Positions 21,001-27,000 of a stretch of 45,637 nt of DNA are shown here, piece by piece; position 1 is the stretch's first letter, and every line of letters starts with the position of its first letter. This DNA comes from a virus (lineage: Duplodnaviria > Heunggongvirae > Uroviricota > Caudoviricetes). The DNA lies in IMG/VR virus record IMGVR_UViG_2529292910_000009, positions 1-45,637 of that record. One strand, 5' to 3'. Made by a program: the position numbers.

Positions 21001-24000
21001 CCAGACCAGAACAGCAATTGCCACAATACGAATGGCAAAAGCTGCCGCTCTTGTTAAATCCAGACTTGCTGGCGTCTCCACCTCAATGCCTTTCATAATG
21101 GACAACCTCAGAAAGAATCTTTTATACTTCCTCACAGGGAAAGAACCTCCCTACCCATAATTTCTCCCTTGCCTTATTCAAGGTCAGAAACACAAAACCC
21201 CGCTTGCTGCCAACAAACGGGGTTTTTACTTTTACTCACTTAAATTTTGCCAGTTCGCAGGATTTCGTGTTATCCGTTCGCGTTGGTCAACGGCATTTTT
21301 CAGCAGAATATTCTGCTTATCTGTCGATACTCCAGCACGCCAGCGCGCTCTCCTGGTCACGCCGCGATACCTGCCCGTAACAGTTATTTGAGCGCTTCCG
21401 ACAGTCCCTGCCGCCGTCATATATCCATCGGCGGATTTCAGCACATGCACCTTTCCGGTCTCCTGCGTTCAGTTTCCGGTAAAACGTTGAGGTGAAGCAT
21501 TTCGAAGGCCCGATGTTGTACGGACAGAATGACGCGATGCCCGCTTTCTGCGGTTCGGTCAGTGGCACTCTGATGTTTTTCTCCACCCATGCCAGCGCCT
21601 TATCACGCTCAATGGCGTTAACCCGGTCGCATTTTTCCTTCGACAACTTCATGCCCGGAACGACAGGTTTGCCATCCACCAGGATGGCACCGCGGCAGAT
21701 AGTCCAGATACCCGCACCATCACGGTATGCCGTGGTGTGGTTACCTTCTTTTTCGTCAAGAAACTGGTCGAGGATTTCAGGCGCAGAAGCGCCCGCAGCA
21801 ATCAGCGCCAGAACGACCGCTGATAAACCATAGCGGAATTTCCTGCTCATCAGCTTACTCTCCCCGCGCCGCCTTACGCCGGTCCTCTTTGATTTTGAAA
21901 TACAGGTTAGTCAGGTACGTCAGCAGCCCAAACAGCAGACTCCCCAGCACGCCTATTGCCGCCCACTGAGACGGGGAAACCCTGTCCAGCAACTGCAGGA
22001 ACCAGTAGCCCGTTCCCACCGCTGACGTGGTGTATGACACACCTGTTGTGATTTTTTCCATCTGGTACATACCCCGTCTCCCGCAATCCGGAAGCTCACA
22101 ACAATATAAAGACCACCGGCACACACCGATGGTCCCTTGCGCATGCTTACATCATCATGTCGCTGTCAGGTGTAGGTTCACCGCCATCTGAAGCACTCCC
22201 GTCACCCGCGATACCTTCCGGCTCAGGAACCGCTGGTACGCCCAGCAGCTCATCCAGAATGGCATCCACTTCTGCATCAAGACGCGACTCAAGGTTCTGG
22301 CGAAGTTTCTGTTTCAGTGCGCTCCGGACTTCTTCAGAGCGCAGGACTTCCTTCACTGCCTCTGCAGTGACCAGGGATGTGATTTCTGACATGGGATTTT
22401 CTCGCTGAAAGGGGTTGTTAAGGAGTAACGGGCTCTTCGGGTTTGCTTCCGGCTGACTGACTGGCGCTGATTTTCTCAGCGGCCCTTTTATCAATCTGCC
22501 TGCACCAGAAATCGCGCACAGCCCTGTACCCACCCGAAAGAAGATACAGCACACAGACCGCCGTACAGAAGTACAGCATCACCTGATGAATAAATGTCAT
22601 AATTTCTTACCGTTATGGTTGACAATGAGAATTGTTTTCATTTAAAAACCAATGTACGAAAGCATCTTTTCTTTACATTCTCCATTGGGATTACCTCCGC
22701 CAGCTTCCATTCCTGCCGCTGGCGGCTTTTTTTAGCAATTATGCGGCTGCTCCAGCTTTGTTTGCTTTAACTTCCACCGTATCAATAAGTACAGGGTAGG
22801 TTTCTGCACTACCTGTAATATCCGTAATGACAAACCTGTTGAGTCCATTAGCAGTATTGGCCCATTTCACCAGGTCAAACGCCTGTCCATCCACACCATC
22901 GAGCACCGGAGTAACATTAATGCTGTTACTGCCCTTAAATTTAAATGCAAGCGTATGCCAGTCATGGTCGAATGCGCCAAACGTGCCAAGTTCTTTTTGT
23001 TGATTAACTGTATGATGGTATGCAACATTAATACTGGCTTTATCTGTCTGGACAAAGAAAGAACTCAGATGGCCTTCACCACCCTCACCCGGCCATTCCG
23101 CTATTCGCCAGTACAAACCAAAGGCATACTTGTTTCTGGTTGTCTCAAGATTGACGTTTTCGGGGATTTTAAACCGGACAGCAATTTCCCCGCCTTTTTC
23201 CAGTAAAAGTTTTGCCTTGTCTGCAGCAATATCACAGTACATTGACCAGGATTTCGCGCTGTTATTTTTCTCAATTCGCAGAGCTTTATTGCCGCTGTCA
23301 TCAACCAGTGTGCGCCTGCCATACACACCGTCCCAGCCATAGGGTTTCAGCTGATTGTCTGTAGCTTTTTTGGCATCGTAAAAAATTACAGACTCTGAGG
23401 TGGTAACCGGTCTGTCTGGAACAACCACCCCGGCAGTACCATTAACAAACGCAGAAGACTTACCCGCGCAGCTCAGAATCGCAGTTGCCAGACGGTCGGA
23501 AATAATCCCACGGCGAGCCCATGAACTGAAATGGCTCGCCCTGTCCTGTGACGTCCAGGTGGCTGAGCTGTCACGCCATTTCGAACCGTAATAACCGATA
23601 CCCGGAATGTCCGGGTCTTCTTCCGGTTTGTTCGTCGGCACATTCACCCCGTTCTCATCGGTCATGAACGGTACGAAATGGATATTCTTTTCCGTTTATT
23701 TTTATAGCTGCCGTACACCGTCTGGTACGTGGATTCGTTCTTCTGCTTCCAGAAATACGTCGTGTCCCCGCATATCCAGGGAACACCGCCAGCAGAGCCA
23801 CCGACGCACTGGCCTGCCATATCCGCCAGGTCTGCACGGAATTTATCAACCAGCGCACCAAACTGTGCGGCATGATTTGCCGGCGTACCGCCAAAATCAA
23901 ATTCCCCCTGCATCCACACCACGGCAAACAGCACATTTTTCGGGTTCTTCTCCAGTGCCGCTTTTGTTCGACCGATAAGGTCCTTATACAGCGGCTTGTC

Positions 24001-27000
24001 CACACCCCAGCGGGTTGAATTCTCCGAGGCGCCACTCGCGTCACTGTATGTGCCATCAGCTCCGGTGGTGAACGCTGAACCACCACGACAGCACGGAACC
24101 AGCAGAATGCCCGCATTCGCCGGTATAAACGGCAGTCAGTTTTTTGGCGATATGCAGCCCCTGCCCCACGGTTCCGTACTGCCCCTTTGACAGGTCCGCT
24201 TTCGGATGGTTAAGACGGCTCATGTCCTGCACATCATGCAGACAATGGTCCGCCGGAATGATGTCGTTATATTTGCATGCTGCACCGCCCGGTGTCACCG
24301 TACTGCGACGCGCTAACTGTTTAATACGTGGATCAGGGCTGTCGAATGTATCCGGTAATGGCAGTCCCTCACCGTATGACATACCATTGGACTGACCAGC
24401 AAGCGCGATCACATAGTAATATTCTGGCGCAACAGAAGGCGCTGAGGTCGTCGGACGGTTGCCTGGCTCCTCTGGTGATGAGATGCTCCCCTCACTCACA
24501 ACTGGCTGGATGAACTCCGCACCATAACCAGCTGTCGAAATCAGCGCACTACCATAAGGCTGCCACCCTTCCTTCAGTTTTTGAGTTATTCGTTTCGCAA
24601 GGTCTGACGGCGACGCCGCCCTGACAACATCATAGTGTTTAAATGCCATGAATCCTCCCGGCCGGGATAATATTGTGAGTAAAATAAGGAGCGGGCTGAA
24701 GTCCGGAAGTTACAGGACAATGGCAGAAGGGAGACTACAGCCCGCAATTCGAAAAAGGTCGCGCAGTTGCGCAGAGTGATTACTATGGGGTATTATTCGC
24801 CAGCTGAAATATTACTTCACGTTTCATTGTTCATTCCTTGCCGCCCGCGTCTCCCAGCGCGGGCTTTTTTGTCCATAAGAAAGCCCCTCCGGAGAGGGGC
24901 TGGAGAGTGGCGCTATGTGCCACTAAACCCGCGTCATTCTCGTTTTGATAATCAGAGATTATACCGTCACCAGTCGCCCCTCCGCTCAGGGGGATTCACC
25001 ATGCAGTTTTTTCTAACAAATTCTCATCCGGGCAGACAACATTCAACTGACTTAATTGTGAGGTATGTAACATTCCCGTTGAACGGATACAAAAAAAGCC
25101 AGCCACCAGGGGAGGCTGGCAAACTCGTAGAGCAAAATGCTGTTACGCAAACTTCGTTACAGGGTTATCCTGCAATACTTAAAATATACAATATTTAGAA
25201 AACTAATAGTGCTATATGAGATTTTTAAGATTTTGTTATTAATTGCGGTCGTACCTTCCTTTCTGTGTACTTTCCGTATAGCTCACAGGATTCTGGGTAC
25301 AAAAAAACCCGCGCATCGGCGGGTTCGGCTGCGTGGCAATGTAACCACTCTTATCATGATATGCAGATTTTTACGATCGTAAACTATTTTTTCGCTGATA
25401 AAATACAGAGCTTCTCCCTCCCGGCAATTCACGCTCAACATACCGATCCATCTCAAGCCTCACTCCCAGCATCATCAGCATGCCTTCAACAATCCCCTCC
25501 GCTTTGTGAAGGCGTTTACCTATACAGGTGTCAGAGCACCCATGTTTCCGTGCCAGCGCCATGAACGTCTCCCCCAACACGTAGTAATCAACCAGCAAGT
25601 CATGCAGATCGCGATTGTTCCGGTAAAGGCGGGCTATGCACCCGCATATCACCATCGCATCATCGTCACAGCACTGTGGACGTGATTTTACTTTTTCGGG
25701 GATCAGTCCCTTAAATCCGGCAGCAATGGGCGACCATGTAACATCCTCATAGTTATTTACCGCCCATGCCCCCCAGCGCTCAAGAACCTGCCGGATATCA
25801 CGCATCAGTATCTTTACCCCATCCGCGATGAACCATAAGGACGCCATTGACGACGGCGTGCTTTTTCGCATCTTTATCATCAATGTATTTTCTGACTGTA
25901 GCACGATTGCAGTTCAGTATTCTGGCGACTTCTGTCTGATTTCCCCTGGTGCAGATCAGTAATTCAGGTATCGTTTGAATTTTAGCATTCATCAAATGTT
26001 CTCCAGTTCGGTGATTTTTATCCCCACTCTACCGCCAGGCACTTTCACGCCGCGAATTACGCGAATGTCATCGAATTGCTCGTCGTCGTCCGCAAATCCG
26101 GCGTGGATAAGAGAGTCGAGTAAACCTTTCAGGATGTTATCGAGGTCGCGACGGCGGGAATCTGGTGGTTCAGCAATAATTGTGATGCGAAGTCGTGATT
26201 TAGTGAAAATGTCTAATCTGAGTTGCCGGATGATTTGCTGTACGTCTTTTCGGTATTTCTGGCCTTTATCGCTGATGTAGTACTGGCTTCCCCGTCTTCG
26301 CCAGTAGGTATTCACCGTCGGCGGCCAGGGAAGCACAAACTCATATTCATTCATGACTTAATCTTCCCCTCCTTCAGCAATATCGCCTGCGTCCTGATCA
26401 CGCCTTCCAGGTGGTAAAGTCTGGCGTCGTTGTTGTCGAGAATTCGGGTGCGTCGGTCGATCTCCGCGTGGCAGTCACTACAAGCCCATGCACCGATCAG
26501 GTCGTCAGGCTTCATTCCCGTTCCGCAAATTCCAGCCATCCGGTAATGTGCCAGAACTGTCGTTTCAGGATTGCCATTGCATACGCCGTAAATCCGTACC
26601 TGGCATTCTCTGCCGCGCGCTTCTTTGCGTAGGTTTGCCATCATCTTATTCCTCGTACATTGAACTATCCGGAGTGACTATTAAATCTTGCACGACGTCT
26701 GAGCCACCGGACATCCCACAGGTGAGACGTATAATTGAAGGTTTTTACATCAGATTCGTTGGGGATTGGCCTGGGTTTATTTCGGGAGCGTTTCGTTGGA
26801 AGGTAATTGCAGTTTTCACAGACTATATCGGTAATGCTTCGTCGCTGTCGTCTCATTCATACCTCCTGTCGGTAAATCTGACACCCTGCTCCACAGCCCA
26901 GGAAGTTGTGTACTCAATCAGGCTTGCCATACGCTTCACGCTCATCTGCGCACTGCTTTCGCGGATATTGACGTATTCACCTTCAAGACCTGGCAAAACA

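Follow-up and report, generated by a model that had tools for sequence, protein, structure and literature searches.

StxS, the 258-nt transcript that reaches from the late promoter pR' to the terminator tR', is cut by RNase E at a GU|AUU motif at position +173, which yields a stable 3' small RNA (sRNA) (Sy et al. 2020, PMC7547250). It occurs in Shiga toxin (Stx) 1 and Stx2a phages, and activation of rpoS by Hfq-bound StxS is known only from strain Sakai (PMC7547250). According to one report, the sRNA STnc100 lies 75 nt downstream of stx2 (PMC12370729), and the order PasD/STnc100 sRNA, sialic acid esterase, holin, then lysozyme has been described as well (bioRxiv 10.64898/2026.05.13.724894). 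The nanS-p esterase genes are known from Stx and non-Stx prophages alike, and Escherichia coli O104:H4 has been reported to have five phage-borne active nanS-p alleles (review PMC8065619); their Neu5,9Ac2 O-acetylesterase activity is reported in work cited by that review. Here, we analyzed the IMG/VR virus record IMGVR_UViG_2529292910_000009 (positions 1 to 45,637; this whole stretch of 45,637 nucleotides is called the window) and, within it, the genes that surround a split nanS-p-like esterase gene at positions 22739-25370. Judged by its sequence, this region is almost certainly the late control and lysis segment of a degraded lambdoid prophage from E. coli, a stx-negative member of the Stx-phage group (933W/Sp5-like). 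The best combined explanation, and one that we consider probable, is a stx-negative Stx-type late region in which a 44-bp deletion in an STnc100-family sRNA gene is real, while the indels in the esterase gene are most likely consensus or sequencing errors. The architecture, the components, and even the esterase allele have been described before; peculiar to the strain are the deletion in the sRNA gene and two single-base indels, the latter probably errors.

Identity of the region and its closest relative

Positions 18888-34946 of the window were 99.4% to 99.9% identical to the chromosome of E. coli O104:H4 2011C-3493 (NC_018658.1), and the prophage is the counterpart of the O104:H4 non-Stx prophage that is flanked by ynfH and ynfF at about 2.526-2.586 Mb. 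The O104:H4 annotation at this locus comprises Q, one SASA esterase, DUF1378, DUF826, holin, lysozyme, and lysis protein, and the O104:H4 prophage also has 933W-type structural genes, encoding an N4-gp56-type capsid protein and a giant LPD38 protein. The window itself is base-identical to contig AIFZ01000022.1 of GCA_000249675.2; the AIFZ prefix denotes genome drafts of 2012 from the diarrhoeagenic E. coli (DECA) collection.

The Q-pR'-tR' and nanS-p regions were 96% to 98% homologous to those of bona fide Stx phages, including Sakai Sp5, phiSTEC1589-Stx1c, and many Stx2a phages. Because of this homology and of the 933W-type module in the O104:H4 counterpart, an earlier description of the region as a stx-negative relative of Stx phages, made from the sequence alone and here called the original prediction, is correct. 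The combined scan for open reading frames (ORFs), Pfam domains, and hairpins also confirmed the predicted Stx-phage-like order of Q, terminators, esterase ORFs, and S-R-Rz on the minus strand. The following features were assigned:

25371..25805 (coding 25805..25374), minus strand: antiterminator Q gene, 144 amino acids plus stop (PF06530, E=2e-50)
25356..25383, minus strand: pR'-like late promoter (TTTACG, 16 nt, TATCAT; consensus scan), overlapping the Q stop codon
25092..25349, minus strand: putative homologue of the 258-nt pR'-tR' transcript StxS(L), including the 3' StxS(S) part (Sakai Sp5, 96%, and matching geometry)
25305..25326, minus strand: early terminator-like hairpin and T-run within the pR' transcript (hairpin scan), kept in Sakai Sp5
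25091..25122, minus strand: tR' intrinsic terminator (stem 25122-25103, T7 run to 25091)
25075..25090, minus strand: empty cargo slot, holding tRNAs and/or stxAB in relatives (comparison with relatives)
24871..25032, minus strand: STnc100-family (PasD-related) sRNA gene with a 44-bp internal deletion (RF02076); own terminator at 24901-24882
24843..24864, no strand assigned: G+C-rich hairpin flanked on either side by A/T runs, resembling a bidirectional terminator, just downstream of STnc100
24137..24649, minus strand: nanS-p piece 1, amino acids 1-171 (DUF1737 and the first part of the catalytic domain, including the GQSN serine motif), continuing out of frame to a stop at 24056
24136, minus strand: indel 1, an extra A (CTGACTG versus CTGCTG in all relatives; alignment)
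23698..24135, minus strand: nanS-p piece 2, amino acids about 172-317 (middle of the SASA/NanS catalytic domain, second frame; SASA, E=3.6e-9)
23695..23697, minus strand: indel 2, A4 to A3 (alignment)
22739..23694, minus strand: nanS-p piece 3, amino acids about 319-636 (end of the catalytic domain and lectin-like C-terminal DUF6645, first frame; PF20350, E=4e-29)
22418..22600, minus strand: DUF1378 gene (domain match)
22147..22392, minus strand: DUF826 gene (domain match)
21855..22070, minus strand: class II holin gene (S; PF04971), protein 100% identical to that of O104:H4
21317..21850, minus strand: lysozyme gene (R; PF00959), protein 99% identical to that of O104:H4
20523..20981, minus strand: gene for the Rz-type lysis protein (PF03245), protein 100% identical to that of O104:H4

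The Q gene is of the PF06530 type and adjoins ninH, and nanS-p is followed by the S-R-Rz lysis cassette, both as in the late regions of Stx phages. The Q protein was 100% identical to O104:H4 WP_001204886.1 and gave a weak match to the Q21 structures 6JNX and 6P18, and the Q DNA was 96% identical to Q of Sakai Sp5. Terminator-like sites are frequent in this part of the window, numbering 18 in positions 22000-26000 versus 4.0 +/- 1.8 in shuffled sequences.

Interval between Q and the esterase gene

The Q-to-esterase interval is 720 bp long and contains three hairpins that resemble intrinsic terminators (25326-25305, 25122-25103, and 24901-24882). The original prediction was right that the interval (24650-25370) has neither stx nor tRNA genes. 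The interval is not featureless, since it holds a pR'/StxS/tR' unit and the STnc100-family sRNA gene with the 44-bp deletion. The pR' sequence is identical in Sakai Sp5, a transcription start near 25349 would lie exactly 258 nt from the T-run of hairpin 25122-25103, and a GU|AUU RNase E motif is located at +173 (25178/25177). The stretch from pR' to tR' was 96% identical, with matching geometry, to the StxS locus of Sakai Sp5, a Stx2a phage, and the homology stopped exactly at the T-run; tR' is also the point at which homology with all the Stx-phage relatives ends. With its homologous sequence, its RNase E site, and the terminator tR', the unit at 25349-25092 reproduces the published anatomy of StxS, and its expression is predicted by homology.

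Only about 10-17 nt separate tR' from the STnc100 promoter region, a slot that contains neither stxA nor stxB. The tRNA cluster ileZ-argN-argO, which is common but not universal upstream of stx in Stx phages, is likewise missing. Searches of the whole window with tblastn, using Stx1c A and B as queries, gave no match better than E=3, and tRNA genes were found neither by ARAGORN (0) nor by Rfam (no match). These results bear out the predicted absence of stx ORFs and tRNA genes, as well as that of any stx-like sequence, whose detection the original prediction had named as speaking against it. The point of divergence between the relatives and the window falls precisely between tR' and the promoter of STnc100: the slot holds tRNA Met/Arg/Arg in phi296 (474 bp), stx1cA, stx1cB, an ORF, and a second STnc100 copy in phiSTEC1589-Stx1c (1760 bp), and three tRNAs and stx2AB in Sakai Sp5.

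The whole 3.35-kb empty-slot arrangement was found in 43 complete E. coli genomes, the exact 39-nt empty junction in 10 IMG/VR contigs, and an identical empty junction in all O104:H4 genomes. Since the same junction recurs in all of these, the stx-less state is an old standing variant that long predates the strain. Whether cargo was gained or lost cannot be read from the junction. The original prediction had also considered a toxin-loss derivative. A recent deletion of the stx cassette (with or without the tRNAs) from a Stx phage, in this strain or its immediate ancestors, would fit the similarity to phiSTEC1589-Stx1c, which shares Q and the esterase allele type with the window (92.8% identity over 95% of the query) and whose main difference is a 1.76-kb stx1c insert exactly at the slot. 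However, no remnant of stx, of a tRNA, or of a methyltransferase fragment was left behind, and the equally clean empty junction in the O104:H4 genomes, the 43 complete genomes, and the 10 contigs leaves a recent loss unsupported and, in our view, very unlikely. Loss of stx through recombination between duplicated STnc100 copies was rejected, as both copies lie downstream of stx in the Stx1c phage and the toxin genes would have stayed. Stx-type late regions with an empty slot are a standing E. coli variant that still bears StxS and STnc100-type sRNA genes; therefore, the Q-to-esterase interval should not be annotated as empty.

The STnc100-family sRNA gene

The STnc100 gene of the window (25032..24871) scored 76.8 bits with the Rfam RF02076 model (gathering score, 47), compared to 165.1 bits for the intact O104:H4 copy. 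The 44-bp deletion, with its junction at 24923|24922, lies between TGGCAC direct repeats; lost with it are two inner hairpins as well as the 3' strand of the GCAUGGUG/CACCAUGC long-range helix. RF02076 model positions about 99-146 are absent, so that the consensus structure is incomplete, and the predicted fold energy was -51.1 kcal/mol (z -1.2) versus -77.7 kcal/mol (z -2.9) for the O104:H4 copy.

By means of the deletion junction, we found the IMG/VR contig IMGVR_UViG_2529292909_000016 (here designated L007), which has the same 44-bp deletion; it was present in no other locus compared. Because it recurs in L007 and in no other locus, this microhomology deletion is most likely real and lineage specific. 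No match to the junction was obtained in a one-genome-per-species scan, in which E. coli has a single representative. The deletion provides a natural structural mutant of STnc100 that could be used for probing the function of this sRNA.

In phiSTEC1589-Stx1c, two tandem STnc100 copies (3898-4109 and 4171-4384; 139 and 198 bits, respectively) directly follow stx1cB, and an ORF annotated as a "hypothetical protein" overlaps the first of them.

The nanS-p esterase gene and its frameshifts

After the hairpin 24864-24843 comes the leader of the esterase gene, which has the ribosome-binding site GGAGG. The ORFs as called (24649..24056, 24003..23662, and 23665..22739) bear DUF1737, SASA, and DUF6645, respectively, and all three match a single 636-amino-acid protein, so that they correspond to one gene in the relatives and not to three, the result that the original prediction had named as its other refutation. 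The gene is thus in three pieces, as predicted, but these occupy two reading frames rather than three: the changes are +1 and then -1, and pieces 1 and 3 consequently share a frame. Homopolymer runs had been predicted at the breaks; a run has changed in length at the second break (A4 to A3 at 23695-23697) but not at the first, where the extra A at 24136 stands 3 nt past an A6 run (24140-24145) that is itself unaltered.

Relative to O104:H4, the gene has exactly two changes, both 1-bp indels, 438 bp apart. Undoing both restored 636/636 identity to WP_000874468.1, the intact O104:H4 esterase of 636 amino acids (annotated as "SASA family carbohydrate esterase"), with zero substitutions in 1911 nt. 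Amino acids 72-393 of the repaired protein matched NanS/YjhS (PDB 3PT5; E=3.5e-118), amino acids 426-630 matched the NanS-p C-terminal domain (PDB 6YP6; E=7e-42), and all three NanS-p domains (DUF1737, SASA/NanS, and the lectin-like C-terminal domain) are present. In the deposited sequence, the frame of the catalytic domain is interrupted by both indels, which lie within amino acids 72-393; therefore, no active esterase can be encoded by the sequence as deposited.

Programmed ribosomal frameshifting could in principle join the three ORFs into one protein, and the A6 run 3 nt upstream of break 1 and the A-rich runs around break 2 would suit such a mechanism. However, opposite shifts would be required, +1 at break 1 and -1 at break 2, and neither site is a canonical in-frame slippery heptamer, for which reasons frameshifting was rejected. 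All the relatives encode an uninterrupted protein of 636-645 amino acids, which argues against frameshifting and against three separate functional genes alike, as does the location of both breaks within the NanS catalytic domain. We give these two explanations together practically no credence.

The frameshifts are present in the deposited sequence, as the original prediction stated, but in biological terms they are probably artefacts. From assembled records rather than reads, we infer that they are likely to be consensus or sequencing errors of the 2012 draft contig. The comparison with L007 carries this reading. Over window positions 14999-25625 and 43758-45637 (12.5 kb), L007 has zero substitutions and shares both the 44-bp deletion and the terS/portal deletions, but its esterase gene is intact and encodes a protein identical to that of O104:H4. 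L007 in turn has a private T8 to T7 frameshift at window position 20184, in a heptose(II)-phosphate phosphatase gene; the window and O104:H4 both have this gene whole. Because two records free of substitutions differ by three reciprocal 1-bp indels, each affected gene being whole in the other record and in the relatives, the frameshifts are likely to be consensus errors; it would be very unlikely for two neutral indels to arise within 438 bp while all 12.5 kb stayed free of substitutions. The strain then probably carries an intact nanS-p of the O104:H4 type.

The indels were also confined to a single record in wider searches. The 197-amino-acid product of the first esterase ORF occurred in one contig only (AIFZ01000022.1) in an index of 153 billion genes. 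Both indels were absent from the complete E. coli genomes among the matches listed for a 496-bp query (best, 99.6%; 738 genomes matched), and neither was found in IMG/VR. They were also absent from nine other empty-slot IMG/VR loci (for indel 2, those covering it) and from four other paralogous or orthologous nanS-p alleles. The last result leaves gene conversion from a paralogue, or a collapsed-repeat consensus, unsupported as the origin of the indels.

Several points weigh against consensus errors. The first indel is not a change in homopolymer length. Among the 66 proteins annotated in the 49-kb O104:H4 stretch (a set that excludes its first and last partial genes), about 50 match the window, and only the esterase is split by small frameshifts. 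Because no other gene shared with the O104:H4 prophage has a 1-bp frameshift, errors are not widespread in the assembly, and some local cause would have to account for two of them 438 bp apart. A third 1-bp difference from O104:H4 (T5 versus T4 at 28380) is a real polymorphism, found in at least six complete genomes. L007 could derive from a sister strain, in which case very recent private mutations would be possible, and the prophage is clearly decaying, with at least five large deletions, so that real pseudogenes are to be expected. On the side of function, StxS and STnc100 expression and the Q-dependent read-through are predicted from homology.

If both indels were real, nanS-p would be a recent pseudogene in a decaying cryptic prophage, disrupted by one frameshift and then by a second, neutral one. 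The state of the prophage, in which terL and the capsid gene are gone along with most of the portal gene, the LPD38 gene has internal deletions, and STnc100 carries a real 44-bp deletion, is in line with this alternative; so are an indel 1 that is no classic homopolymer miscall and an assembly that looks otherwise clean, with no small frameshift in any other gene of the window. It is, however, difficult to reconcile with zero substitutions in the gene and across 12.5 kb relative to L007, whose gene is intact, with the reciprocal private homopolymer frameshift of L007, which is typical of consensus errors, and with the occurrence of the indel alleles in no other record examined, and we regard it as doubtful. 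Should the frameshifts and the sRNA deletion all be real, which we consider decidedly unlikely, the prophage would represent a snapshot of domestication in which NanS-p, the STnc100-type sRNA, and the virion genes are eroding while Q, the StxS-like unit, and the lysis cassette stay base-perfect. That would hint at host-benefit selection on StxS and/or the lysis genes in a toxin-less strain. With consensus errors as the preferred reading, the split esterase of this draft contig should be counted as a nanS-p pseudogene only with read support.

Predicted functioning of the late region

By analogy with Sakai Sp5, pR' would be constitutively active in the lysogen and transcription would halt at tR', giving a 258-nt StxS-like RNA that RNase E would trim to a 3' small RNA. 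STnc100 would be transcribed from its own promoter and end at its own terminator. When Q is made, RNA polymerase would be modified and would read past tR', the STnc100 terminator, and nanS-p into S-R-Rz. Induction would result at most in cell lysis and in no virions, because terL and the capsid gene are absent, as is most of the portal gene, and the deletions in the LPD38 gene break its frame.

Decay of the prophage and neighboring genes

A functional 933W-type morphogenesis module is lacking, with terL, the major capsid gene, and others absent; the module has collapsed, and the prophage is defective. At positions 18283-19258, terS is cut after amino acid 125 and joined to a portal fragment (amino acids 564-687) and a DUF6682 fragment. 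A look-up of the truncated terS ORF for sister assemblies returned only AIFZ01000022.1. The LPD38-domain gene (2893-8726), which encodes 2783 amino acids in O104:H4, has a frame-breaking internal deletion of 2326 bp near 8030, and a 1117-bp deletion near 2984 removes its 3' end; the flanks of the deletions are 99.9% identical to O104:H4 and show no small indels. In L007, the junction at 10625/10626 joins window position 25625 to 43758, and the 18.1 kb absent there reach from inside Q to the gam region and comprise the whole early region. The two sides overlap by only 2 bp at this junction, which shows no repeat. L007 represents either a sister strain in which a further deletion has occurred or the same strain in another assembly.

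The immunity region at 34946-38336 (repressor, cro, and neighbors) shows no similarity to the O104:H4 prophage, whereas its flanks are 97% to 99% identical, indicating, from the sequence comparison, that the immunity module has been swapped by mosaic exchange. In the stretches 28043-28243 and 27318-27989, Rfam matches to isrK (69 bits) and to a C4 antisense RNA (66 bits) with its a1/b1 target adjoin an ORF6N/P22_AR_C antirepressor gene. This unit, located upstream of ninB, looks like an antirepressor control of the P1/P7 immI type or the Gifsy isrK type. At the left end of the window, an Rfam sRNA-Xcc1 match (287-375; 69 bits) is accompanied by a further copy, 85% identical, of the ORF6N antirepressor gene's C-terminal half (416-1045, plus strand); this copy corresponds to the Ant gene region beside ynfF in O104:H4.

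Toxin genes of other kinds were also identified. The RelE/ParE toxin gene (28271-28636) has a T5 run at 28380 and a 100-amino-acid product, whereas O104:H4 has T4 and an annotated product of 85 amino acids. The T5 allele was matched at 100% in at least six complete genomes, and the O104:H4 copy may be the truncated one. A hok/sok toxin-antisense locus (29955-30276; sok, 117 bits) is located in the nin region, and a second Hok/Gef gene (9969-10106) is located in the tail-fibre region. Between Rz and terS, on the opposite (plus) strand, lies the low-G+C lipopolysaccharide core heptose(II)-phosphate phosphatase gene (19828-20442), with an intact T8 run at 20184.

Comparison with known systems

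The closest described system is the O104:H4 non-Stx prophage, with which the late region of the window is 99.9% identical, including the empty slot, pR'/tR', and the STnc100 gene; identity is 100% for the Q, holin, Rz, DUF1378, and DUF826 proteins. The window differs in the 44-bp STnc100 deletion and the two 1-bp esterase indels, in having another immunity region, and in the large deletions in the morphogenesis and LPD38 genes.

With Stx phages of the 933W/Sakai Sp5 type and phiSTEC1589-Stx1c, the window shares Q, pR', the StxS region, and tR' at 96% to 97% identity, together with the order of STnc100 after the cargo, then nanS-p, and then S-R-Rz. Unlike the 933W/Sp5-type phages, it has neither the ileZ-argN-argO tRNA cluster nor stxAB, and it differs from Sp5 also in the C-terminal third of the esterase and in the DUF1378/DUF826 segment. 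Compared to StxS (PMC7547250), the unit has the same promoter, the same length of 258 nt, GU|AUU at +173, and the terminator, and its 3' 86 nt are identical to those of Sakai Sp5 save for two loop bases and the length of the T-run. In contrast to StxS, it is located in a prophage without a toxin gene to regulate.

The sRNA gene belongs with the STnc100 (RF02076)/PasD family of prophage sRNAs by its score above the gathering threshold, but it is 44 nt short, and its score and z value are reduced from 165 to 77 bits and from -2.9 to -1.2, respectively. Finally, the esterase gene has the DUF1737, SASA/NanS, and lectin-like C-terminal domains of known NanS-p sialate O-acetylesterases (933W z1466 and phi24B vb_24B_21; 6YP6), and its NanS part is shared with chromosomal NanS/YjhS (3PT5); it differs from the known NanS-p esterases in that its catalytic domain is, as deposited, broken twice.

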